From Candidatus Thorarchaeota archaeon (GTDB taxonomy: Archaea; Asgardarchaeota; Thorarchaeia; Thorarchaeales; Thorarchaeaceae): a DNA stretch of 32,307 nt. Positions within the stretch are counted from its first letter, which is position 1; every line of letters begins with the position of its first letter. The stretch is taken from contig RDOC01000009.1 in NCBI GenBank assembly GCA_011364985.1, forward strand, positions 1 through 32,307, in the 5' to 3' direction. Below are positions 9,523 through 25,006 of this stretch, one piece after another. The position numbers were made by a program, and so were the translations under genes. The notes below the pieces were generated by a model. The model was not told where the DNA came from. It did no database searches and saw only the letters and a list, made by a program, of their open reading frames with translations.

Positions 9523-10854
9523 ATGAGCAGAAAATCCGGTAGGACTCCGAGCTTCAAAGCACTCAGAGAGAGCTACAATGACATTTCCCCTCCCAGTCCC
9601 AATCATGTCCTCATTGTTAGCTCCCCCATACCCAGTGCAACCTTATCCAGCGCTCTCCTTTGTAAGTGGTTTCTTAAGTCAGGCATTCTTTTCCATCTGA
9701 CTTTCTCCGAACCTATCATGAACATCGACACCATCAATGAATTGCGCAAAGCGTATGAAGATTCGGCAATGATTGTGGTCGGAATAGATATTATTGGCGA
9801 CAAGCGGCTCAGAAAGGGATCCAGCTATCCCCTCTTTCTAGGGAGCCAGTCTGAGTGCTCCCAAATTGAAGAACGAACCATAGGAAACAGGACGAACATT
9901 GCAGCTGCTTCTTATGCGTATACCATGGGCAATAACGAGACAGCTGATCCCAAATTGCTTCAACTCGCGGCTGCCGGCGCGATAGTAGATGATTTTCCCA
10001 ATCTCGTCTTGAAGGGAGCCTCGAAACAGGTTGTTGGTATGGCTGAAAAGGAGAAATTGATTGAAGAATCAAAGGGATTCAGACTATTCGGTGTCAACTT
10101 CCTTCAGCTGAAGGAAGTACTCACCTATAGCATCAGACCATACTTACAGAACTTAAGCGGCGTCCTAGATGCCTGTGATAGGATTTGCATTGACGCTGAT
10201 ATTCCCTTCTCTAAGTTTAGTATGCCTCTAAACGCACTAAGTTCGTTAGAAGCTACTAGATTCAATGAGCGTCTCTTGCCACTCATTGATCCGCGGACGA
10301 TCCCCTATGTCTTAGGGCAGGACTACGTTCTGACTCAGGAGAAAGAAGATAGTCTTGCCAGGCTTTTGTCGGGCATAAAGACACTAGCCGAGTTTGGTTG
10401 GACTGTGGGCGAATGGGGAACCTTGACTGCAATTTGGATGGGAAACAGAGAAGGAAGTCTGAGAGGAAGGGTACTTGATGCATACAAGCTCTATTCGTTA
10501 GATGTGATTGCTGGTGTTGAGGAGTGTATTGAAACGCTTCTCAAAAGCTCGGAGTCATTGACAAAGGGCAAGACAACAAGAATCTCCACCAAGGCCATTA
10601 GAAGAGAGACGCTCGCTGACGTTGGAAGGATACTCATTGAATCAGGACAAGTGGAAACGCCGTGTGTGGTCCTGAAGATGGAGAACTCTCTTGAGATGAT
10701 ATGGAAAATGAATTCTCGGACACTTCAAGAAGTCATTCCCTTGTTCTGGAAGGTGGGAATTTCTGCTGAGTCGACATCATCCCAGTCAATACGAATTGAA
10801 GCCGCAGATGATACAGGGAATACTGCGATGCAGATTATCGAGGAGATATGGTAG
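9523..10854 (+). CDS. RecJ/DHH-superfamily protein (rps15-linked), apparently lacking catalytic motifs
   Basis: Occupies the conserved archaeal position between rps15 and pcc1. LAAAGAIVD and LTYSIRPYLQNLSG resemble this family, but the DADG and DHH motifs are not recognisable. Confidence 0.7.
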   Translation: MSRKSGRTPSFKALRESYNDISPPSPNHVLIVSSPIPSATLSSALLCKWFLKSGILFHLTFSEPIMNIDTINELRKAYEDSAMIVVGIDIIGDKRLRKGSSYPLFLGSQSECSQIEERTIGNRTNIAAASYAYTMGNNETADPKLLQLAAAGAIVDDFPNLVLKGASKQVVGMAEKEKLIEESKGFRLFGVNFLQLKEVLTYSIRPYLQNLSGVLDACDRICIDADIPFSKFSMPLNALSSLEATRFNERLLPLIDPRTIPYVLGQDYVLTQEKEDSLARLLSGIKTLAEFGWTVGEWGTLTAIWMGNREGSLRGRVLDAYKLYSLDVIAGVEECIETLLKSSESLTKGKTTRISTKAIRRETLADVGRILIESGQVETPCVVLKMENSLEMIWKMNSRTLQEVIPLFWKVGISAESTSSQSIRIEAADDTGNTAMQIIEEIW

Positions 10855-10863
10855 GGAAGTAGA

Positions 10864-11103
10864 TTGCTTAAAGCAAGTATTGGAATTCGGTTTGCATCGG
10901 CATCTCAGGCGAGGGAGATCTTTGAAGCTGTAGTACCTGATAATCAAGAACTCCCACTGGGCCTAAGCATTGATTCGAATCTAGATGAGAACAAGATTAC
11001 CTTCGAAATAAGGTCGAATCGAGGAATCGATAGCTTGGCGGCAACGCTTGAAGACCTGATGAGTGCCATTGACCTCTCTGTTCGCACCATAGAATCCATT
11101 TAG
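10864..11103 (+). CDS. pcc1: KEOPS subunit Pcc1
   Basis: 79 aa with the IRF.S...A..I..AV.PD...SLAATLEDLM pattern; conserved synteny. Confidence 0.85.
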   Translation: MLKASIGIRFASASQAREIFEAVVPDNQELPLGLSIDSNLDENKITFEIRSNRGIDSLAATLEDLMSAIDLSVRTIESI

Positions 11104-14517: not shown

Positions 14518-14612
14518 AGCAGTCATTGTGCTGCTATAAGGATTATATCAAGACTGCATTGTTTCTACCAATCAAGCGAAGACTGCCAAGCCAGTCAACT
14601 AGGTGCTATGAT

Positions 14613-14817: not shown

Positions 14818-15222
14818 GAGTTATGCACTCCATCCATGTATATAACTTGTCTTGAGTCCTTTTCAGGAGTCTTTCTTTGATTTCTTGAGTTTTTGATGCG
14901 AGGATAGAGCAAAATAACGTTGGTGGAGAAGTCTTGCATGCAATCTTGGCTGCGAATAATCAGATACGCAAGATTCGTGTCATTTCATACCTTCACTCGA
15001 TCTAAGAATCTGAACAAATACCAAAGAAGAAGTCAATAGAGCAAGTAGAATCGATATCGGATGAATTTAGATTAGCTGAGGAGAACTCGGAAAGAGCAAT
15101 GAATGAGTGCTTGCGATTGGTGAGAAAAGAGAAACTTATCAAATGATATGAATGAATTTGGAATATCCTTTGTACTAGTGATTATCCACTATGTCTTTTG
15201 TCTCCTGTATAAATGTAGAAAA

Positions 15223-15310
15223 TGGTGCGGAGGGCGAGATTTGAACTCGCGAATCACTACTGAATAGGATCCTAAGTCCTACGCCTTTGACCAGGCTTGG
15301 CAACCTCCGC
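15223..15310 (-). tRNA. tRNA-Leu(TAG), CCA encoded
   Basis: Acceptor stem GCGGAGG/CCTCCGC, anticodon arm TAGGA-CTTAGGA-TCCTA, long variable arm, T-arm GCGAG-TTCAAAT-CTCGC. Confidence 0.97.
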
Positions 15311-15559: not shown

Positions 15560-15925
15560 TTACATCCTTGAAGCGTTCACGGAGTTTTCTGGCCTCTTCG
15601 CCCGTTTTCTTAGTTTTCTCCTTCCAACGAAGTAACCGATAGCTGCACCAAGTCCAAGTCCAGCTCCGACAAATATTGGACCTGTAACACCCCCACAATC
15701 AGGAACTCCGAAGACCACTTCCACAGCCTTACCGAGGTACTGTTCATACACCGAATCAGTTCCCAAATTGATTTGGTCATATGATGTCTGAATAAAGTAT
15801 CCAATGCTATCCCTAAAGACAATACCCTCAACAGTACCAGCCAGCTTCGCAGCGAGTCCGGTCAAACCTCCAACAGCTGCACCAGCAACTGCTCCGACTT
15901 TATCATAAGCATCTTTTATCTTCAT
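15560..15925 (-). CDS. Gly/Ala-rich membrane protein, paralog A (probable frameshift near 15615; restored ORF would end at 15516)
   Basis: GGTGA RBS and two GxxxG-rich hydrophobic segments. The alternate-frame tail KTKKTGEE... aligns with paralog B's KTKRMTQE. Confidence 0.7.
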   Translation of the reverse strand: MKIKDAYDKVGAVAGAAVGGLTGLAAKLAGTVEGIVFRDSIGYFIQTSYDQINLGTDSVYEQYLGKAVEVVFGVPDCGGVTGPIFVGAGLGLGAAIGYFVGRRKLRKRAKRPENSVNASRM

Positions 15926-15936
15926 ACATTTTCACC

Positions 15937-16337
15937 TCAATTCTCAACTGCACCCTCAACCTGACCCTGATCTTCTTCACTAGACTCTACATACGATTCC
16001 TGGGTCATCCTCTTAGTCTTGATTCTTCCAGCAATATAATCGACAACTACACCAAGCCCAGCTGCAATAAACAACGGACCTGCGATGCCCTTGAAGTGAA
16101 GATTTCCGAAAATCACTTCTACAGCCCTACCTACGTACTGCTCATATACGGAATCAGTTTCCAAGAATATATCATTACCTAGGACATCCACATAGTAATC
16201 TATTGTATCATCTCAATCATAGCCATAGATAATACCCTCAACAGCACAAGCTAACTTAGCAACAAGTCCACCTACAACTCTAGCAGCTGCCCCTAGAACC
16301 ACTCCGATTTTGTCATAGGCTCTCTTATTTTCCCCAT
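15937..16337 (-). pseudogene. Gly/Ala-rich membrane protein, paralog B (disrupted)
   Basis: ATG at 16337 gives MGKIR, then a 1-nt frameshift to AYDKIGVVLGAAARVVGGLVAKLACAVEGIIYGYD, an in-frame TGA (16213-16215), then ...TDSVYEQYVGRAVEVIFG. It is collinear with 15560-15925. Confidence 0.8.
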
Positions 16338-16442
16338 ATTGATTCGTCTTTGAGTAGTGGACGCTCTATTCTATTTATCAAGTGTTTACTTACCATTTAT
16401 GATGGATGAATGCGCCCACCCGGTTTCCTCTCTCTTCACGAA

Positions 16443-16476
16443 TGAATCGTGAGCTCGAATCCCTCCCTCCGCACCA
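16443..16476 (+). repeat. Degenerate tRNA-Leu 3'-end fragment (att-like scar)
   Basis: TGAATCGTGAGCTCGAATCCCTCCCTCCGCACCA versus the tRNA-Leu 3' end TGATTCGCGAGTTCAAATCTCGCCCTCCGCACCA: 28/34 identical, last 12 nt exact; no 5' half found. Confidence 0.75.
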
Positions 16477-16517
16477 ACTTCGCTCATTATTCAGTTACTT
16501 GAAAGAAATCCACAGAA

Positions 16518-16954
16518 TCACTTACAATCCTCAATAACACTCATAATCTGCTTTGGTCGCATATTTGTTGTGAGCACCAATGACGTATCTCTTTCTTGGA
16601 TTATTGGGATGTCGCGGTAGTAGAAAATGAACGAGATGGTGTCTATGAGAAGAGCATCTCCTTGACGAAGTGCCTCTGCAAAGACCATCTGAACTTCCGG
16701 CATGTCTCAGAGCTCTTTCGCACCCCTAAGAGTGATGCAGAAGAAGTGGACGACCTCTCTGTTCATGAGGACCCTATGAGTGGGGCAATCGTTCCATCCA
16801 CCTTGTATAACTCGATGCATCTCTCTTGGTTCTCTTTGAGGAATATTATGACCTGGGATTCTCTAGTCTCCTCGCGTGAGGCCGTTGCTAGGGCCACTAG
16901 GGCGTCCTGAATTTGCGAATCGATGTCGTTACTCAAGATGGGCACTTCACTCAA
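16518..16954 (-). pseudogene. Disrupted hypothetical protein
   Basis: ORFs 16763-16954 and 16518-16703 can be joined through one frameshift (about 16770) and one in-frame TGA (VLMNREVVHFFCITLRGAKEL*DMPEVQ). Confidence 0.45.
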
Positions 16955-17103: not shown

Positions 17104-17204
17104 GCCGAGGTATCCAAGTGGTCACGGAGACGGTCTCGAAGCCTGTTGGCGAGGCAACCGTTACCCTTTGAGGTTCATGAGTTCGAATCTCATCCTCGGC
17201 GCCA
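17104..17204 (+). tRNA. tRNA-Ser(CGA) with 15-nt canonical intron (17141-17155), CCA encoded
   Basis: Acceptor stem GCCGAGG/CCTCGGC, G discriminator, anticodon stem ACGGT/ACCGT, BHB (CTCG/CGAG helix with AA|G and GC|A bulges), long variable arm. Confidence 0.95.
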
Positions 17205-17328
17205 TCTAATTGTCTGGATTATTCACGTAGCCGCTTGGAGACCGTTCATTTTTAGCTGGATAGTGTAACCATGAGTTTCTCATCCTTCCAGGAATGGCAC
17301 TAGAATCTTGAAGATTGATTATATTTCT
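17182..17328 (+). repeat. 147-bp direct repeat, copy 1 (tRNA-Ser 3' end + tnpB 3' end)
   Basis: Ungapped match to 21190-21336 (offset 4008), with 17 mismatches by manual count. Confidence 0.95.
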
Positions 17329-17442
17329 TGCCGCATTGATGTCGGCTTGAAAGTGATTACCACATGCTGAGCAATAGAAGAACTGCTCCAAGCATTTTGA
17401 AAAAACGAAATTTCGTCGGTCCATCCTGAAACCACACTTGGA
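17206..17442 (-). pseudogene. tnpB: C-terminal remnant of a TnpB (IS200/IS605/IS607-type RNA-guided nuclease)
   Basis: SKCGF...FFYCSACGNHFQADINAARNI is the zinc finger plus RuvC-III motif. The upstream part of the ORF does not resemble TnpB. The stop codon is 1 nt from the tRNA CCA. Confidence 0.85.
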
Positions 17443-17659
17443 AATGCATAGACCCGCAGCGAACGGCATACCTGAATCTGCAGCCAGCTTATTCGTGCTA
17501 TTGAAACTCATATCAAGAAGTGGAATTTTGAAGTATCTTATGACGCGTGAAGAGCCAGCAGATCTGCGCAGTCTAGATAATTCTTGTGATATTGCAGCAA
17601 GTAGTCTTCGCAGACAACTGGCCAAGCTTGAACAACTCTCGGTAATTACCCGGAAGTGA
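17438..17659 (+). pseudogene. Winged-helix (ArsR/MarR-like) protein fragment
   Basis: SRSGILKYLMTREEPADLRSLDNSCDIAASSLRRQLAKLEQLSVITRK fits a wHTH pattern; it ends at the wing and has no convincing start. Confidence 0.45.
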
Positions 17660-18227
17660 ACCCTAGGGTCGATCCGCATTCAGATGGACAGTGATCTGAG
17701 AGGAATATTGGCAGACCGTACTTGAGATTTAGATCCGATAAGACTTCCTCTGAATCTAGTACTTCTTCTTGTTCAATCAGTTGTGGATGGATGCTTGTTA
17801 CAGATACTCTTGACTGGGCAGTTCAATGTCGATGTCTTTGAAGATTTTGTTGCCAATTGCAGACGCATAGACCAAGGGAAACAACAACAGCGAACGTTGG
17901 AGAGCTGAGAATGCTTCCACGGCTTATGGTCACCGAGCGCCACTGGTACTGCCTTTGTTTACTCGCCACACTCCGTTTTGTATAGTGCATCAATTCGACT
18001 CCAAATCTGCTTGCGAACTGAATTTCGGGATGTGGGTGGGGTTATCAAGAGCATTACCGCTGCGTGCATCGCCGGAGAGAGTATCTAGGTCTGAAATGGG
18101 AAGATATGAGGCGTCATTAGAATCCCGCTGATTCGTGACGCGCAGGAAGAAGGCTTTTATCAAACCTCTGTGCTTCAGGCTGTAGACTATACAACTTATC
18201 GGGTGTCCGTATAGTTGGAGAGGAGGC

Positions 18228-19967
18228 TTGCAGAAACTGAGAACTCGTTTAATAGCTGTCTTCCTGACAGCAATATTCCTCACACTCTGTGTTCCTTCGG
18301 TCTTTGCCGCATGCCCACACGGACTTGATGACACAGATGTGTGGAATTTGAGCCCCGAAGAAAGAGCCAAGATTGGACCTGACTTGGGGCATTTCCTTCT
18401 GTCAAATGAGAAAGACAGAATTGATGTGATCGTCGGATGTGTGAAAGACTCCGGCTTTGATTATATACTTAGATCAAGGGAGGTCATAGGACATTTCGCA
18501 GTAGATGGCGAATGCCCACTTTTCAGAGTGTTTGGTGCCCAACTTTCGCCTAAACAGATTCTAACACTTGCTAGGTCGTCTCTTGTCACGAATATAGAAT
18601 GGAATCGTGATGACATCCAATTCTTCATGGATTCAGCCAGAGGAACAAATGGAGCAAACGTTGACGCTCTGAGAAATTCATACCCAGATTTAGATGGTAA
18701 CATGGACGGAAACATTAACTCGTACTCAACTGATGACATAGTAATCGCGATAATCGATACTGGTATTGACCCGTCTCATCTTGACTTAGATGATGGAAAA
18801 GTAATATTGTGGCATGACGGCATCCTTGGACTCCCGTACCCTTATGATTATGTTGATGGCCATGGAACAGCTTGTGCCGGGATTGCAGCTGGTGACGGCG
18901 AGGCTAATTGGAACTACAGAGGAGTAGCTCCCTATGCTGCACTCGCCGTTGTCAAGATGGCGCCAACCTATTTGGGTGCATTGGATGCTCTTGAGAAGGT
19001 GATGGTGTGGCACGCCTTATACGGAATTGACATCCTTAGTATCTCTTGGGGATTCATCCCAGGTAATCTAGTCTGGGATTGGACTCTTCCACTGATGGAA
19101 ATAGCTGTCAATGAGTTAGTTGCTGCAGGAGTCATTGTAACATGCGCTGCAGGCAACTATGATGGTCAAACTGATGAACGTAGGTACGTTTGTGTGCCTG
19201 CGACTGCAGAGTATGCCATAACTGTGGGAGCATCTAACGATGGTTACAACCGAATGTGGTACTCCGCATGGGGCAATACTCCCTATATCAAACCTGACAT
19301 TCTGGCACCGGGCAACAATATCCATGCACCAGCGGCAGACAATCAGTTCGACCCAGAAGCAACTCATGACAGATATCTGAACTTTGGAGGCACTTCCGCT
19401 GCATCTCCTTTTGCCGCTGGACTTATAGCACTACTCTTGGAAGATGAAGCTATGAGAGGCAACGAGGATGATGGTAATCCAGTGACCAAGCATCTTCTAA
19501 TGGCTAGCGCAGAAGAGCTTCCTGATGATACAGTTCCGGGAAAGGATGAGAAGAATGGTGCAGGGTTCATAGATGCGGTGAATATATGGAACTTCTGGCA
19601 TGATGATGTGTCAAGCAGCTTCATGGATGCCGAATACTCGCTAGGATATAGCTGGGAAGATCAGGACTGGCTTTGGACCAACGAACCCATGTGGACCTAT
19701 GACGGAGAGGACTGGTATTGGTTGTATGCTTACTCTAGCATTTTCATCTACATTGAAGTCTGGGGTGACCCCGATGCCATTGTAAAGATACGTATACTTT
19801 CCAGCGTAGGTGGATATCCAGGAAGTGTCCTGTCCTATTCGTATCCAAAGAATCATCCTGTCTGCGGTTACACAGCAACCTACACAGGAGCCTACTTCGT
19901 TAAGATAACGTGTGAGCAGTATAGCGGAGACTATTATGACATTAGAATCTCAACAACGCCTTCATAG
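18228..19967 (+). CDS. Secreted subtilisin-like S8 serine peptidase with prodomain and C-terminal PPC-like beta domain
   Basis: GGAGG + TTG start, signal peptide (..VPSVFA), catalytic IIDTG / HGT / AAGN / GTSAASP, and KPDILAPG. Confidence 0.95.
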   Translation: MQKLRTRLIAVFLTAIFLTLCVPSVFAACPHGLDDTDVWNLSPEERAKIGPDLGHFLLSNEKDRIDVIVGCVKDSGFDYILRSREVIGHFAVDGECPLFRVFGAQLSPKQILTLARSSLVTNIEWNRDDIQFFMDSARGTNGANVDALRNSYPDLDGNMDGNINSYSTDDIVIAIIDTGIDPSHLDLDDGKVILWHDGILGLPYPYDYVDGHGTACAGIAAGDGEANWNYRGVAPYAALAVVKMAPTYLGALDALEKVMVWHALYGIDILSISWGFIPGNLVWDWTLPLMEIAVNELVAAGVIVTCAAGNYDGQTDERRYVCVPATAEYAITVGASNDGYNRMWYSAWGNTPYIKPDILAPGNNIHAPAADNQFDPEATHDRYLNFGGTSAASPFAAGLIALLLEDEAMRGNEDDGNPVTKHLLMASAEELPDDTVPGKDEKNGAGFIDAVNIWNFWHDDVSSSFMDAEYSLGYSWEDQDWLWTNEPMWTYDGEDWYWLYAYSSIFIYIEVWGDPDAIVKIRILSSVGGYPGSVLSYSYPKNHPVCGYTATYTGAYFVKITCEQYSGDYYDIRISTTPS

Positions 19968-20149
19968 ACCACCCTGTGCGGTTGTTAGATACGCAAGTCC
20001 TGACGGAGATGTCAGGGCTTGTACCTTTCTTCATGTTTTCGAAAAGCAGCTTTCATTTGAACTGATGGACTCGGAGGGAGGTACTTTGTCGTCTGTCTTG
20101 AGAATACGGCAAAAGGAAGAGAACATGTGAAAGGAGGTACATTGCCTCA

Positions 20150-20929
20150 ATGAAAAATGGGATGATCACTATCCTCGACCAGTTCATCAATCTGACTGCA
20201 ATGTACTGCAAGTCAATCATGCTCGTGGGCAGCCAAGCCTCAGGATTAACAAACGAAGAAAGCGACCTCGACCTAATTGTGATTGCACATGGTCATAATG
20301 AGGCAATGGAGGTTCGGAAAATCGCCAGCAGATTTGGTACCAATATGGGACGAGCCATTCTGGATTGCAAAGTGTATACAGAGGACGAATTCACAAGGGC
20401 AAGGTCCGGTTCTGAGAACCGCTTCATATGGACCTGTATGAAGCAAGGAAAAGTAGTCTATGGAATGGATATTATTGATACGGTCCAGCTCAAGCCGGAT
20501 CAAACAAGGGATTCGTATTGGGAGCACATTCAGAATGTTGAAAACGCAATCTTGGACCTTGATAATGGAATTCATTTCACTGGTAGCTGTTATCATCTCT
20601 ATGATGCCTTGGCCACCACATATTTTATTGAAGCATTCATATTCCAATCAGCTATTCGGAAGCAAAGAAAGGAAGAGTTTATTGCGTCTGTGCTTGAAAA
20701 AGAGTACTCCATAATACGTGACAGATTCTACTGGGTTTTCAAACACATCAGTGCAGATGGCCTCAAGAATAACATTCGCGTGCCTTCAAGCATGGATCAG
20801 AGATTTAGTAGAACTCACTATGATAGTGTACATAAGAAAGCAATTCCTACTCTTGACTACGCTAGAAACACATATCGAAGGCTTGCCGAGTGGGCCGACA
20901 ACTTAGCCAACATCTATGAGAAATCATAA
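20150..20929 (+). CDS. Pol-beta-type minimal nucleotidyltransferase with helical HEPN-like C-terminal domain
   Basis: LVGSQASG...ESDLDLIVI...ILDCKV NTase motifs. The C-terminal half resembles HEPN helices, which is an inference. Confidence 0.8.
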   Translation: MKNGMITILDQFINLTAMYCKSIMLVGSQASGLTNEESDLDLIVIAHGHNEAMEVRKIASRFGTNMGRAILDCKVYTEDEFTRARSGSENRFIWTCMKQGKVVYGMDIIDTVQLKPDQTRDSYWEHIQNVENAILDLDNGIHFTGSCYHLYDALATTYFIEAFIFQSAIRKQRKEEFIASVLEKEYSIIRDRFYWVFKHISADGLKNNIRVPSSMDQRFSRTHYDSVHKKAIPTLDYARNTYRRLAEWADNLANIYEKS

Positions 20930-21189
20930 GCAGAGTTAGGTGGTGTAGGCGAAACTAGATAGATGATGATTTTCCGCTCCGAGTAATAGTCGAATATGGA
21001 AAAGGTGACTAAGAAAACCGATTCTCTCGTTTAGATTTGACTGGACAAAGTACCAATGGACTGGATACCTTGGCGAGAATAGCATTGTACTTTGTTCCCG
21101 GCATTGATTTAACTCTAACTCTGTTTGTGGGCCGGCTCAATGGCCCTGTCCATAGTATCCCGATAGATCTCTTCGAGTGAATTAAGGAT

Positions 21190-21336
21190 TTCAAGTTTCA
21201 TCCTTGGCGCCATCTAATTGTCTGGATCATTCACGTGGCCACTAGGAGACCGTTCATTTTTAGCTGGATGGTGTAACCATGAGTTTCCCATCCTTCTAGG
21301 AACGGCACTGGAATCTTGAACGTTGATTATGTTCCT
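21190..21336 (+). repeat. 147-bp direct repeat, copy 2 (degenerate tRNA-Ser 3' end + last 40 codons of tnpB)
   Basis: TTCAAGTTTCATCCTTGGCGCCA followed by a region whose minus strand reads RNIINVQDSSAVPRRMGNSWLHHPAKNERSPSGHVNDPDN*. Confidence 0.95.
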
Positions 21337-21344
21337 TCTGATAG

Positions 21345-22625
21345 TTAAAATGTTACTGACTCAATTTCCGGAGAACCGCCGGCAGCGGCTGCTTCCTGCG
21401 AAGTACTTGTGTCGATGATGTATTCCTCATATGCCTGTTGCTCCATGTTTATCAACCAGCCGTTATAGCGGTCACGAAGACCTGATACGTCAGCCTGTCC
21501 ACAACTAAACAGAATGACAAGAGCAATGAGAATCGCGAGCGCAGTCTTCTCCCACAGACTCAGGTAATCTTTCATGCATGCATCGAACACTTTGTTGTTG
21601 AGTCTGGTATAAGCATGATTACCAAAACCTCCTCGCGTAGGCCATGTAGCATCCGAATCTGTGACGAAACCTTCACCAGAACAGTGGTTCTCAGGAAAAG
21701 GGTTGTTACATAGTCCACGGCCGATAGGATAGATGTAGTTGAGATAACCAAATGGTGCGTGGAAATGGTATTCTGTTTGGGCACCCACAATCTTTGTCAT
21801 GAGAGACAATGCACCGCCGCAGTCATAGCAGTTGACAATCCAATTATCTGGATGGTCCTCGCTGGTCCCCGGACAGAACCTCGGTTCTGGTGGCACATTC
21901 CCATGTAGAACATATTCAATCCAATTGCTCATTTCGAATTGCCATGCATCCCAAGAAGAATGGTTGTATCTAGGTGCTCCTCTGTCTGTATCGTAGCGAA
22001 GATTATAGTCTCTATTGATGGCTTTGGTCATCTTCCGGGCTGCCCAGATATTATCTTTGGAGCCTCCAGCGATTCTACAGCATTCATCCAACAACTCGCC
22101 CCAAGGATTGCGATAGTCTCCGTAAGATTGTGACCATGGAGCCGGCGGCACACTCAGTACAAGGTAGATTCGGTGTGAGGTGTTCTTTAGTCGCTGCCAT
22201 GATGATTCACCTTGGCGTCGGTAGAACCATTCCCATGTCACCTGATGAACGCCAACCCTTGAAAAATCTCGATACGAGAGAGGGATATCTACTGTCGCCA
22301 ATGTAGCTTCGGGAGCAAATTCGACCCGAATCGGATCAAGAGGCCCCATGATTCCTCCCCCAGTAGCTTTGACCTCCCAGACCCTACTAGCCGTTGCAAA
22401 GGTGGCCAATTGGACTCGGATGTTGACAACTTGGCCGTCAGTTTCAGCAATAGCATAAGCGGCGCAGTTGTATTCAAAAAGGTTTGCAGTTAGCTTGGTA
22501 TACTCTGGTAATGGGACTTCGAAGTCCTGGTTTCGCCTGATGTTCATCGCCGAGTTTGTCGCAGACGAAGTATCCAGATTGAAATTGATGGACTCCAGTT
22601 GTAGTACCATTTTCCTCATCTCCAA
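21345..22625 (-). CDS. Hypothetical protein with transglutaminase/papain-like Cys-His-Asp motifs
   Basis: VNCYDCGGAL..., FGNHAY and VFDAC occur in transglutaminase-like order; beta-rich N-terminus; hydrophobic segment near the C-terminus. Confidence 0.7.
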   Translation of the reverse strand: MEMRKMVLQLESINFNLDTSSATNSAMNIRRNQDFEVPLPEYTKLTANLFEYNCAAYAIAETDGQVVNIRVQLATFATASRVWEVKATGGGIMGPLDPIRVEFAPEATLATVDIPLSYRDFSRVGVHQVTWEWFYRRQGESSWQRLKNTSHRIYLVLSVPPAPWSQSYGDYRNPWGELLDECCRIAGGSKDNIWAARKMTKAINRDYNLRYDTDRGAPRYNHSSWDAWQFEMSNWIEYVLHGNVPPEPRFCPGTSEDHPDNWIVNCYDCGGALSLMTKIVGAQTEYHFHAPFGYLNYIYPIGRGLCNNPFPENHCSGEGFVTDSDATWPTRGGFGNHAYTRLNNKVFDACMKDYLSLWEKTALAILIALVILFSCGQADVSGLRDRYNGWLINMEQQAYEEYIIDTSTSQEAAAAGGSPEIESVTF

Positions 22626-23447
22626 TCAGGTTATGGCTATGTTGAGTTGTGCCTTCTTGGGCAGGATTCCGGCATCTCCCCAGAGCATTGTGATCGTGTG
22701 TTCGCCTTTGTCCATGCCTGCCCGATAGTACCACTTGTCCGGGTTTGTGATATCCCGATTTATAGAACCGCTTGTTGTTAGGAAGAAAGTAAACCCGACA
22801 TCCTTCTTGATTTTGGGAATTGTACCAATTGCAAGGACTTCACCTGCAGGGATCTTGATAGGCGTTGGTGTTTTGCTTTGGATCTCGTGGAAGACTCCCT
22901 CCTTTTCCTCAGAGTATTCATCAACGGTCGGCAGCTGATTAAGAATTCCATCTATCCCTCGTGCAATTTCTACAATGGGCATTTCTGTTTCGAGACCCTC
23001 AACTGCTAAGAACACATTGTTCCGCACAAGTGTGACTATGTCAGGTGTCCCCTTCAGCCAGGCCCATGCAAGACCAAAATCTCCGAGATTATAGTTCTTT
23101 CGAACATCGACTACCGAGTCCAATCGGATAGGTCGTTCAAAGTCTTCAACAAACGAAAAAAGGAGGTCTAATGCCCCTTGAATTCTGTCCAAACAAAGGG
23201 CCAAGAGGATCTGAAGCCTAGCCTTGCGTTTCTCCTTCTCCGAAAAATGGAGTCTTCTGAAGATAGATAGAGGCGTCCGACGAAGAAACACTTCTTGGTG
23301 AACAAGCTTGTATGGCCTGAGAGATGTAAGGTCCATCTCCTCAAGAATGAGATTTTCACCCACAAGGGGACGAGATAGCTTCCTAAGTTCATCATCGAGA
23401 AATCGATTTCGTATTATTGAAGACTTGCGTTTCGATGACCTTGTCAC
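22626..23447 (-). CDS. Hypothetical protein directly abutting the downstream gene
   Basis: 273-aa ORF with GAGG upstream and a 0-nt gap to the next ORF; Ig-like beta-rich C-terminal part. Confidence 0.75.
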   Translation of the reverse strand: MTRSSKRKSSIIRNRFLDDELRKLSRPLVGENLILEEMDLTSLRPYKLVHQEVFLRRTPLSIFRRLHFSEKEKRKARLQILLALCLDRIQGALDLLFSFVEDFERPIRLDSVVDVRKNYNLGDFGLAWAWLKGTPDIVTLVRNNVFLAVEGLETEMPIVEIARGIDGILNQLPTVDEYSEEKEGVFHEIQSKTPTPIKIPAGEVLAIGTIPKIKKDVGFTFFLTTSGSINRDITNPDKWYYRAGMDKGEHTITMLWGDAGILPKKAQLNIAIT

Positions 23448-23602
23448 TTTGACGAACCTCCCAACTCAAGGCACCTAACCGGCTATTTTATTAAATCTAC
23501 GTCGATTTAAGCCTATCTGTTTCACAGAATCAATCCTGCAAGAAAATCCCTGAAGTTCTGGGCAGGAATTCAATCCATCTTGTATCCAGTATCGATTTGA
23601 CT

Positions 23603-24994
23603 CTAACTTCGCTTCAGTGCCTGTTCTGTTGCCCTATCCATGGCCTCTCTGCCAATCTTCTCAAGGGAGTCAAGGGTTTCCTGTGTCTTAGCACCGATGT
23701 ATAATCGGGCCTTCGGTTCAGTTCCTGATACCCTGACAAGGAGATAGGAACCATCGTTTCGCTCTATGCGAATACCATCTTCCTCTAGAATCTTCTCTAC
23801 TCCGGTTATCTCTTGGATGAGTATTTCCTTGACTATTGGAAGGAATCTAGGTTTCACCTCATCAGGGCATGGAATGTTGTCGCGAAGCATAGGATACTCG
23901 GGGACTGTCTTCATCAGTTTGATACAGCTCTCATCACCAATCTCATCGACCATCTGAGAGAGCCTTGCAGCGCCAGCAACACCATCCATCCATCCGCCCA
24001 AATCAGTGAAGATTGGCTTCCATGGTTCAGACGCGAAGATGATGATTCCTTCCTTGTCCAAAGCGAGACGTTCCTGGAGTGACCCCAGGGGAGCACGAAC
24101 CACCTCACCACCCTCGGCTTTGACAAGTTCATCAATGACACTAGAAGTATCAATGGAGACAACAACTCTACCTCCGTCATGCCGTTTCACTTCGTCCCTG
24201 GCGAAGAGAGCTATGACACGATTCTGGTCTATGAAACGACCTTCTTCGTCAATCACCGCCAGTCTATCTCCATCACCGTCATGACATAGAGTCACAGCAA
24301 AATCGGATTCCTTGGCAATTCTCATGGTGTCTTGAAGGTTCTTTGGAGATGGCTCAGCCGGCCTTCCTGGAAAGTATCCATCTTGATGAGAGTTTATTGT
24401 TACTACTGAGAAACCAAGTTCTCTCAGAAGGTGTGGTGTGTAGTTGGTTGCTGCACCATTGGCGGCATCCACCAGAACTCTCGTACCACTGCTTATACTC
24501 CCTCTTTCAAGTGCGAACTCCTTCACACGGCCAAGAAAATCATCTCGGATGTCATAGTGGGAAAGGCGCCCAACCTGACTCCAATCGGCAATTAGGAACT
24601 TCTTGTCCTCTACTCGCTCCTCCAAGAAGACTTCTTCGGTTCTGATGAACTCTCGACCCCGAGTGAAGAACTTGAAGCCATTGTCAGCAGGAGGATTATG
24701 GCTGGCAGTGATTATCACAGAAGCATTGATTCCTTTGAACACGCTGTGAAAAGCTGTTGTAGGCATTGGAACGATACCTAGGTCCACAACATCAACTCCG
24801 GTTGATAGCACTCCTGAAATGAATGCACCTCTGAGCATCTCTCGAGAAGTACGTGCATCGGTCGATACTCCAACTCCTCCAGTGCCCTTTAGGTACGTTC
24901 CCAGAGCACGTCCGAGGCCCAAGGCCAAGTCTGTCGTTACATTCTCAGCTATGCTTCCACGAATTCCGCTCGTGCCGAAAAGCCGCTTCGCCAT
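23603..24994 (-). CDS. glmM: Phosphoglucosamine mutase / phosphomannomutase family
   Basis: LFGTSGIRG, ITASHNP, DGDGDR and VRVSGTEP motifs. Substrate specificity cannot be resolved from sequence alone. Confidence 0.92.
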   Translation of the reverse strand: MAKRLFGTSGIRGSIAENVTTDLALGLGRALGTYLKGTGGVGVSTDARTSREMLRGAFISGVLSTGVDVVDLGIVPMPTTAFHSVFKGINASVIITASHNPPADNGFKFFTRGREFIRTEEVFLEERVEDKKFLIADWSQVGRLSHYDIRDDFLGRVKEFALERGSISSGTRVLVDAANGAATNYTPHLLRELGFSVVTINSHQDGYFPGRPAEPSPKNLQDTMRIAKESDFAVTLCHDGDGDRLAVIDEEGRFIDQNRVIALFARDEVKRHDGGRVVVSIDTSSVIDELVKAEGGEVVRAPLGSLQERLALDKEGIIIFASEPWKPIFTDLGGWMDGVAGAARLSQMVDEIGDESCIKLMKTVPEYPMLRDNIPCPDEVKPRFLPIVKEILIQEITGVEKILEEDGIRIERNDGSYLLVRVSGTEPKARLYIGAKTQETLDSLEKIGREAMDRATEQALKRS

Positions 24995-25006
24995 AATACA
25001 CAACTC

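Follow-up and report, generated by a model that had tools for sequence, protein, structure and literature searches.

Genomic islands and proviruses that carry a tyrosine integrase integrate at tRNA genes, and casposons target tRNA 3' ends. Characterised TnpB nucleases usually employ a guide of ~16-20 nt. Synthetic "cleave and rescue" (ClvR) designs combine a nuclease that is aimed at an essential gene with a linked, recoded and resistant copy of this gene. For TnpB proteins of the IS200/IS605 type, Karvelis 2021 and Meers 2023 are said to have described a role in homing or retention. The Asgard aCas1-TnpB elements (Cas1H-Asgard-1/-2; PMC10691335; Altae-Tran et al. 2023, PNAS) comprise two Asgard-specific TnpB groups, whose loci are often flanked by repeats; downstream of tnpB, a hypervariable guide-like stretch follows a conserved T. 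Here, we describe a stretch of 32,307 nucleotides from a Candidatus Thorarchaeota archaeon (contig RDOC01000009.1, positions 1 to 32,307, of assembly GCA_011364985.1; in the following, the window), in which the 3' end of tRNA-Ser is joined twice to the tail of a tnpB gene on the opposite strand. The two junctions are probably the worn-down ends of a Thorarchaeota (Asgard) TnpB mobile element, which contained a guide copied from tRNA-Ser and an altered spare tRNA. The locus appears to be a decayed example within the catalogued Asgard aCas1-TnpB class. The main text of PMC10691335 mentions tRNA zero times; it does not describe the putative origin of the guide from tRNA, the splitting of the native tRNA or the inverted spare, all of which would be new with respect to it.

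The direct repeat (17174-17329 and 21182-21337) comprises 156 nt without gaps, of which 136 (87%) are identical, at a spacing of 4008 nt. This agrees well with a first-pass annotation made from the sequence alone, which had listed two copies of 147 bp with ~88% identity, 4008 bp apart. Read on the tnpB strand, each copy starts with the final codons of tnpB and the scaffold (77 nt), which are followed by the guide segment (18 nt), the trailer (19 nt) and the antisense strand of tRNA-Ser. The identity of the two copies is 77% in the tRNA 3' end (31 nt), 95% in the trailer, 83% in the guide segment and 91% in the scaffold. Outside the borders of the repeat, similarity drops to background on both sides. 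The whole assembly, a 74% complete metagenome-assembled genome of 1.7 Mb in 22 contigs, contains the 156-nt repeat at these two sites only. Trailer-like sequences follow the 3' end of tRNA-Ser in several relatives, e.g. in G064:C5, G046:C4 and G030:C342 (genome and contig, in our labelling).

The boundary of the scaffold was located by means of an alignment of the tnpB 3' flanks of 28 homologs from related genomes. These flanks are conserved through a hairpin CCAG...CTGG and a stem GGAC...GTCC and end abruptly at ...ACAATGAACGG; beyond this point, the sequences of the loci are unrelated. RNAalifold predicts the GGAC/GTCC stem for them as well as hairpins in which compensatory changes occur (C-G instead of U-A in nine sequences). 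Both copies of the window have a sharp scaffold end at ...AATGAACGG, 37 nt ahead of the CCA of the tRNA (positions 17242 and 21250), and the stem GGAT...ATCC of copy 1 covaries with the GGAC...GTCC of the family. A covariance model (R1), by which the first-pass annotation had proposed to separate scaffold and guide, was built from the homologous tnpB 3' ends; it matches both copies (Table 1) and places the boundary at the same 37 nt. Alignment and model show a predicted omegaRNA-like scaffold that is structured, covarying and sharply terminated. As in IS200/IS605 TnpB systems (ISDra2), the scaffold overlaps the tnpB 3' end and the guide position is occupied by the DNA just past it. In intact homologs, the tnpB stop codon mostly lies ~4-37 nt before the scaffold end. 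In copy 1, a chimeric minus-strand open reading frame (ORF; 17206-17679) ends with ...FFYCSACGNHFQADINAARNIINLQDSSAIPG..., and its stop lies 1 nt from the CCA, as had been noted before. The tnpB 3' ends recognised in the first pass are genuine, but the last ~30 codons of this ORF are a read-through of scaffold, guide and trailer and not coding.

The guide position of copy 1 holds a sense copy of tRNA-Ser positions 8-25, i.e. of the D-arm. The first-pass annotation was right in assuming that the guide contains the sequence of the targeted tRNA. The guide it had named, the antisense tRNA 3' end (TGGCGCCGAGGATGAG), cannot fulfil this function, because 37 nt lie between the scaffold end and the tRNA, too many for a guide of ordinary length to bridge; a scaffold boundary far from the tRNA is what that annotation had itself listed as speaking against its proposal. 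Guide segment 1 includes an exact run of 14 nt, TCCAAGCGGCTACG, that is common to tRNA-Ser(CGA) of the same-genus genomes G056, G057 and G058. Counted by eye from the printed allele sequences, it matches this allele in 15 of 18 positions and the adjacent intact tRNA-Ser, which reads TATCCAAGTGGTCACGGA, in 12 of 18; the three extra mismatches lie in the middle of the guide. No other near match to guide 1 was found in its own genome. In guide segment 2, the first 12 nt correspond to positions 8-19 of tRNA-Ser(CGA) from G055, and the two guides differ where natural tRNA-Ser alleles differ. These matches show the putative guide segment to be derived from tRNA-Ser. As for IS200/IS605 TnpB, the guide fits the uninterrupted target, which is consistent with cleavage of the empty site.

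The intact tRNA-Ser(CGA) that adjoins copy 1 was missed at 17104-17204 by plain ARAGORN without the intron option; Rfam matches a tRNA at 17104-17201 with 45.3 bits and a 17-nt insertion in the anticodon loop. It was compared with the alleles of G055, G056, G057, G058 and G070. Its acceptor stem is GCCGAGG/CCTCGGC, that of the five same-genus alleles GCCGGGG/CCCCGGC, and the difference is a compensatory pair. The D-loop reads AGTGGTCA instead of AGCGGCTA or AGTGGCTA. Over its first 36 nt, the gene shares 81-89% identity with the relatives, compared to 89-97% for the pairs of relatives examined. In addition, five of six same-genus genomes have the gene in the opposite orientation. In G055, G057, G058, G062 and G070, the order S3Ae(-), tRNA-Leu(+), tRNA-Ser(-), phosphoglucomutase (PGM)(-) is confined to 1.2-2.9 kb, and G056 has tRNA-Ser(+). 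In the window, tRNA-Leu(-) and tRNA-Ser(+) are both flipped, S3Ae and PGM are ~9 kb apart, and synteny with the relatives resumes at both sides of this interval. The comparison of alleles and gene orders shows that the resident tRNA-Ser is an inverted allele that diverges from the others and has additional mismatches to the putative guide. It does not look like the native gene rebuilt by integration, for which it had been taken in the first pass.

Remains of the native gene were detected as well. The segment 21097-21122 matches GGATACCCCGGC, followed by ATTGAT..., and GATTTAACTCTAACTCT of G058 and G062, including an exact match of 17 nt; a native upstream block has remained next to PGM (Table 1). 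As judged from these alignments, putative relics of the native tRNA-Ser(-) are shown to lie beside the cargo. In G057 (contig C1, L065, locus positions 10603-11003), a full tRNA-Ser(-) is found together with an inverted 3' fragment of 17-19 nt beside PGM. In G056 (contig C31, L071), the tRNA-Ser of G057 and its upstream flank occur in opposite orientation. Within the genus, an inversion between inverted repeats of tRNA ends has evidently flipped tRNA-Ser.

The same assembly contains two intact genes of ~720 codons that resemble the relic of the window, namely C17:133507-135672, which encodes the protein P0001, and C21:52633-54828. The ORF 17206-17679 matches PF07282 (Cas12f1-like TNB, E 2.6e-6). 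A tblastn search of the window with P0001 aligned residues 684-718 (the last ~35 residues) to copy 1 at 17287-17385, with 66% identity, and residues 703-717 only to copy 2 (RNIINVQD..SSAVP, 21298-21336). The translation of copy 2 is limited to RNIINVQDSSAVP..., its relic comprises the last 13 tnpB residues, and tnpB amounts in total to only ~35-50 residues in the window. This comparison with an intact paralog confirms what the first-pass annotation had stated, namely that copy 1 extends to the Zn finger/RuvC-III, that copy 2 stops at RNII, and that the nuclease has decayed in both copies. P0001 possesses the motifs DRG, FFEDL and HADVNAARNI as well as CxxC pairs, and matches PF07282 at 7e-13. 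Compared to NCBIfam guided_TnpB, it reaches 69.1 bits, which is below the cut-off of 100, and only residues 491-706 are covered. The 720-aa TnpB-like protein is a predicted divergent and enlarged branch of TnpB; it differs from IS200/IS605 TnpB by ~300 additional residues and by a score below the NCBIfam TnpB cut-off. Altogether, the assembly contains eight TNB-domain matches. Of the 86 genomes of the family, 44 contain homologs of P0001, and as many as 13 matches were listed for a single genome; these homologs are often located at contig ends and are often C-terminal fragments.

In most loci, the divergently oriented neighbour of tnpB is a giant ORF of ~1,700 aa without a Pfam match. A second TnpB type of 570 aa (C15 and C16) is likewise paired with a giant ORF. 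All homologs of the giant ORF are annotated as "hypothetical protein" and originate from Thorarchaeota, Lokiarchaeota or Promethearchaeia. The region upstream of tnpB is too divergent for a family alignment and runs into the giant ORF. The giant ORF of C17 (P0002, C17:135849-141170) contains around residues 395-425 the D...E.K pattern GRVDLTIF...VMILEIKTK, of which D397, E419 and K421 are invariant in 22 homologs. This pattern suggests a candidate PD-(D/E)XK nuclease domain beside a possible Cas1-like N-terminal motif. A weak BLASTP alignment with Cas1 at a "NALL" motif (PLNALLNYAGACL to PVNALISFGNSLL) has an E-value of 0.26. The family Cas_Cas1 (PF01867) has no match anywhere in the assembly, and no Y1 or serine TnpA was found in the window or beside the intact copies, which are accompanied by the giant ORF only; relatives were searched non-exhaustively.

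With the aCas1-TnpB elements of PMC10691335, the loci share the Asgard host, two TnpB types (720 and 570 aa), a giant divergent ORF and multiple copies, and further a conserved region downstream of tnpB that is followed by a frequent T and a hypervariable stretch. The flank begins with a T right after the scaffold in 24 of 36 cases. A first difference is the downstream motif GTTCACTCA of these elements, which was not seen in the 720-aa type here; similar motifs occurred only in locus L027 and, as GTTCATTCACT, in the 570-aa-type locus on C16. Furthermore, the relics of the window lack both genes, and the Cas1 homology of the giant ORF is not confirmed.

Intact elements of this kind are found at other tRNAs. 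On C17, the native tRNA-His is split into a 5' half (positions 1-38; 141501-141538, minus strand), which still has its native upstream flank, and a 3' piece (132850-132877, minus strand); both are 97-100% identical to tRNA-His of relatives. Between them follow giant ORF, tnpB, scaffold and CTGTGGCTCCTTTG, which represents the anticodon arm of the native allele. Its anticodon-stem strand TCCTT pairs with AAGGA of the native tRNA and not with AGAGA of the spare. The spare, an inverted intact tRNA-His, begins 96 nt beyond the guide and is only 84-87% identical to relatives. A 7-nt repeat, TGTGGCT, at the junctions could be a target-site duplication. The protein flanking tRNA-His on C17 is a member of a large paralog family. 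The tRNA-His locus of G055 (contig C57) has the layout of C17; its TnpB belongs to the 570-aa type, and its spare contains an intron.

A tRNA-Lys module was identified in G069 and G067, which belong to one genus, and in G054 from another genus. Here, the scaffold is followed by CCAGTGGCTTAGC..., a spacer of ~45 nt that is homologous in G069 and G054, and an inverted tRNA-Lys. The guides of G069 and of G067 each fit the tRNA-Lys of the other lineage (16-17 of 20 positions) better than the one beside them (13-14 of 20). Finally, on C16 (48803-58694; L014, L141), the 570-aa type and a giant ORF are flanked by an intact tRNA-Gly(TCC) on one side and by repeats of its 3' end on the other; a D-arm-like sense piece is also present here. 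At this locus, ARAGORN erroneously called the first tRNA-Gly fragment a tRNA-Leu with an intron of 2846 nt.

The module is thereby shown to sit beside intact elements at tRNA-His, tRNA-Lys and tRNA-Gly. The arrangement of scaffold, sense tRNA piece (from the very first base behind the scaffold), short spacer and inverted tRNA of the same identity was encountered at four tRNAs, with both TnpB types and in no fewer than two genera. In every tested case, the broken pieces fit the allele of the relatives and the intact tRNA is the outlier. Six of ~44 P0001-type scaffold ends adjoin a tRNA, where ~0.05 would be expected by chance, as do three of the eight TnpB-domain matches of the genome. Full-length tnpB genes abutting tRNAs, which the first-pass annotation had recommended searching for, do exist at His, Lys and Gly; as for the linked recombinases it had also named, the assembly contains no tyrosine integrase.

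The window represents, as read from its layout, two successive and related decayed generations, E1 (17205-21096) and E2 (21213 to ~23528). On the minus strand and starting from PGM, the native upstream block is followed by the 273-aa and 426-aa ORFs and by tnpB tail, scaffold, guide and trailer of copy 2. Then come 31 nt of an old spare tRNA and a partial native upstream block with tRNA positions 1-6. The nucleotidyltransferase and subtilase genes, which are encoded on the plus strand, precede tnpB relic, scaffold, guide and trailer of copy 1 and the working spare tRNA. In both E1 and E2, the giant ORF has disappeared and very little is left of tnpB; their cargo, acquired or retained, differs. 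Copy 1 presumably retains the working spare tRNA, and copy 2 only 31 nt of an older one. In copy 2, the tnpB tail breaks off at a distance of 8 nt from the stop codon of the 426-aa ORF. Neither cargo is present in the syntenic interval of the same-genus genomes, and no paralogs of the 426-aa and 273-aa ORFs were detected elsewhere in the genome. The different cargo behind each copy was correctly seen in the first pass. Its idea of a cargo array built by successive insertions is in line with the two tandem generations, but the second copy may be due to either a further arrival or a duplication in place. The positions of the main features are compiled in Table 1.

Table 1. Features of the tRNA-Ser and tRNA-Leu region in window coordinates.
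Feature	Position	Strand	Remarks
Decayed native tRNA-Leu 5' piece	14576-14603		Ancestral orientation
Native tRNA-Leu 3' piece	16448-16476		Ancestral orientation
Intact tRNA-Ser(CGA), 15-nt intron	17104-17204	+	ARAGORN with introns allowed; last 31 nt are the left end of copy 1
Trailer/spacer, copy 1	17205-17223	.	19 nt between tRNA CCA and guide segment; 95% identical to copy 2
Guide segment 1	17224-17241	-	TCTCCAAGCGGCTACGTG; directly after scaffold
omegaRNA-like scaffold, copy 1	17242-17318	-	R1 58.8 bits, E 1.9e-14, full length; overlaps last tnpB codons
tnpB C-terminal relic, copy 1	17287-17442	-	Degenerate Zn finger and RuvC-III (QADINAARNI); PF07282; inside ORF 17206-17679
S8 subtilase, first cargo	18228-19967	+	PF00082, 3e-41
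Nucleotidyltransferase, first cargo	20150-20929	+	PF01909 and PF18765
Native tRNA-Ser relic, positions 1-6 (GCCGGG), and upstream flank (ATTGAT..TTAACTCTAACTCT)	21097-21122	-	Native orientation
Truncated tRNA-Ser 3' end, copy 2	21182-21212	+	Last ~28-31 nt of tRNA; U69 in acceptor strand (CCTTGGC, 21206-21212)
Trailer 2	21213-21231	-	19 nt, between copy-2 tRNA end and guide segment 2
Guide segment 2	21232-21249	-	TCTCCTAGTGGCCACGTG
omegaRNA-like scaffold, copy 2, and last 11 nt of tnpB tail	21250-21337 (scaffold 21250-21326)	-	R1 60.1 bits, E 7.9e-15
Second cargo, abutting 426-aa and 273-aa ORFs	21345-23447	-	No Pfam, PHROGs or NCBIfam match
Native upstream block of lost tRNA-Ser	23529-23610	-	Matches ATCAAT...CTGAAGTTC...GATTTRACTCTAAC of relatives; still on PGM 3' end
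Phosphoglucomutase (PGM) gene	23603-25003		

As the simplest reading, the following mechanism would account for these arrangements. In an intact element, the ~1,700-aa ORF, the "aCas1" of the literature, lies divergent from the gene of the 720-aa TnpB-like nuclease. The element would enter a native tRNA gene and thereby destroy the native copy. TnpB together with the omegaRNA would cut uninterrupted native-type alleles, for homing or for the exclusion of empty sites. The cell would live on the guide-mismatched spare tRNA of the element, so that the element could not be lost; the inverted orientation of the spare would also block deletion by recombination between direct repeats. The overall layout would correspond to a natural "cleave and rescue". 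With ClvR and toxin-antidote logic, it would share a nuclease directed against an essential gene and a linked, guide-mismatched copy. It differs in that it is natural and prokaryotic, that a tRNA is the essential gene, and that the nuclease is gone in the window. The essential tRNA gene as a target, and the linkage of a replacement tRNA and cargo, also distinguish it from IS200/IS605 TnpB systems.

More tentatively, one may envisage a serial take-over of the essential tRNA, a possibility to which we do not give preference. Each arrival would cut the resident allele by means of its copied guide, install an inverted, guide-resistant spare and push the old tail and its cargo downstream, which would result in a cargo array. 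Orphan modules may still police the locus via TnpB provided in trans. The window on its own cannot act; it holds relics, not elements. For its orphan scaffolds to be active at present, the intact copies on C17 and C21 would have to supply TnpB in trans.

Several observations weigh against a tRNA-Ser-guided element in the window. Its guide 1 mismatches the best native allele at three of 18 positions, and the guide on C17 matches its target for only ~14 nt. No consistent target-adjacent motif could be read from three target sites. No Ser-guided copy was found in any other genome of the genus and the family by DNA searches. A scan of genome contigs with a degenerate pattern for intact Ser-guided elements listed unrelated taxa only, which were read as chance matches, and two metagenome scans yielded nothing or five unrelated chance matches. 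The mobility of the Ser module would be deduced by analogy with the His and Lys cases. The window was devoid of any trace of the giant ORF and of a usable tnpB in tblastn and paralog searches. Cas1 homology of the giant ORF was negative or marginal in Pfam segment searches, with the Cas_Cas1 hidden Markov model, with PDB profiles and in hhalign comparisons with canonical Cas1. An antisense 3' relic of the native tRNA-Ser was looked for and none was found. A 12-nt tRNA-Ser 5' end, GCCAAGGTATCC, at 21063-21074 (minus strand) is not accounted for by the proposed mechanism; its A4 is compensatory to U69 of copy 2, which lies on the opposite strand. This piece suggests a putative inversion that broke an earlier spare tRNA. 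The direct repeats of the tRNA-Gly 3' end on C16 (29-42 nt; 55553-55581 and 58666-58694) look more like an att site or a target-site duplication. Last, ~38 of the ~44 P0001-type ends have flanks other than tRNA (28 loci by ARAGORN and Rfam, others added). Since most tnpB ends are away from tRNAs, the entire family cannot be called tRNA-specific. The tRNA-linked TnpB family postulated in the first pass thus holds for an adjacency far above chance, but not for the majority of the ends. Likewise, the guides showed no general enrichment over controls when compared with the tRNA set of the genome.

Among the alternatives, ordinary wreckage fares best, but we consider it unlikely. A TnpB transposon would have inserted into a native tRNA-Ser at a hot spot of recombination, the D-arm piece would be no more than a remainder of the disrupted gene, the intact tRNA would be an unrelated duplicate or have been acquired laterally, and a later segmental duplication would have generated the second copy, without any functional link. 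The common junction of scaffold and D-arm in both copies is explained most simply by duplication, and several rearrangements have occurred at the locus, where tRNA-Leu is flipped too, and inverted fragments of tRNA ends exist in G057. Most guides of the family have no similarity to tRNA. Moreover, seven of the nine R1 matches in the genome are orphan 3' relics, and the five outside the window have no tRNA nearby. Debris of this kind may explain the present locus by itself, but would hardly account for an ordered module that recurs at four tRNAs with two TnpB types in at least two genera, nor for native pieces that are typical and an intact tRNA that is atypical in each tested case. It would also not account for guide segments that differ at naturally variable positions of tRNA-Ser.

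The first-pass annotation had favoured an integrase-type element at the tRNA-Ser 3' end, with attL and attR and with the antisense guide as a mark of the empty att site. The tRNA 3' end is indeed directly repeated with different cargo behind each copy, an intact tRNA-Gly on one side and direct repeats of its 3' end on the other enclose the C16 element, and the adjacency to tRNAs by far exceeds chance. As in tRNA-integrating islands, a tRNA locus serves for landing, and cargo is enclosed by repeats of the tRNA 3' end. Nevertheless, this explanation is improbable. The boundary of the scaffold puts the tRNA 3' end beyond the reach of a ~16-20-nt guide. The repeat is not confined to the tRNA end and runs 125 nt past it, and the window contains no third tRNA-Ser 3' end that could represent a third att copy. 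No ORF of the window matches an integrase or a transposase except for the tnpB tail, and Phage_integrase (PF00589) has no match in the 74% complete assembly, where not even a XerA-like recombinase was detected; the remark that no integrase is visible was correct. Integration at the native site would not invert the intact tRNA relative to the gene of the relatives. In contrast to tRNA-integrating islands, the gene has been replaced by an inverted, divergent full-length copy rather than rebuilt in place, and an RNA-guide module lies between element and tRNA. The direct repeats on C16 leave room for an integrase of the element itself that may duplicate the tRNA end. In summary, the first-pass annotation had recognised the class of the element and the idea of a tRNA-derived guide, and was mistaken in the guide itself, in the role of the tRNA 3' end and in the integrase. 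A misassembly, i.e. a chimeric join or a mis-resolved repeat, which had also been listed as an objection, is highly improbable as the origin of the second copy, even in a 22-contig, 74% complete assembly and with related elements often at contig ends elsewhere: the copies differ at 20 of 156 positions, which speaks against a collapsed repeat, their flanks are different and coherent, synteny resumes on both sides, and the only N run of the contig begins beyond the end of the window.

Only two of the nine R1 sites in the genome are attached to intact genes. Besides the two orphan relics in the window, which like the others are 3'-terminal, orphan scaffolds are located at C15:137456-137536, C15:60869-60946, C16:133681-133760, C19:13032-13108 and C2:16944-17017. 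In four of these five, the coding-like upstream sequence comprises the last tnpB codons only (H.DV.AARN...); none is recognisable at C16:133681. No tRNA was detected in their ~3-kb loci. The scaffold-plus-guide end seems to outlive the genes. A weak R1 match on the plus strand of the window (16562-16634; 8.7 bits, E 3.3) ends with TAGAAAATGAACGA and is preceded by a tnpB-tail-like frame, RNPQNHLQSSI. It is not claimed as a third scaffold; possibly, a third right end in an advanced state of decay has survived here in the opposite orientation.

The neighbouring tRNA-Leu(TAG) shows a related picture. The intact gene (15223-15310) is a flipped outlier, which is identical to relatives in 75-76 of 88 positions, compared to 87 of 88 between the relatives. 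A 63-nt inverted repeat (I1; 15205-15267 and 16432-16494) pairs the 3' half of the intact tRNA-Leu with the native 3' relic. Probably, tRNA-Leu is a third targeted tRNA in this genome, with native relics but without guide or scaffold. Between the flipped tRNA-Leu and the native 3' relic (15560-16320) lie two paralogous small minus-strand ORFs of 121 and 84 aa (repeat families D2/D3, 73% DNA identity), for which a holin-like family gave the sole, weak match. An older element may have carried them as cargo.

The weakness of the tRNA-Ser locus is that its nuclease is gone. Beyond the tRNA-His copy, it adds a second targeted tRNA (Ser), evidence for a succession of elements with turnover of cargo, and the preferential survival of scaffold plus guide. 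If the proposed mechanism is true, it would explain the flipped and allelically odd tRNA genes that are found amid tRNA fragments in these genomes, and guide, target and immune allele would form a natural set that is open to testing in vitro. TnpB would gain a concrete biological role beyond the retention of transposons. The Asgard aCas1-TnpB elements would then be more than transposons with a hypervariable region, namely selfish elements that hold an essential tRNA hostage.

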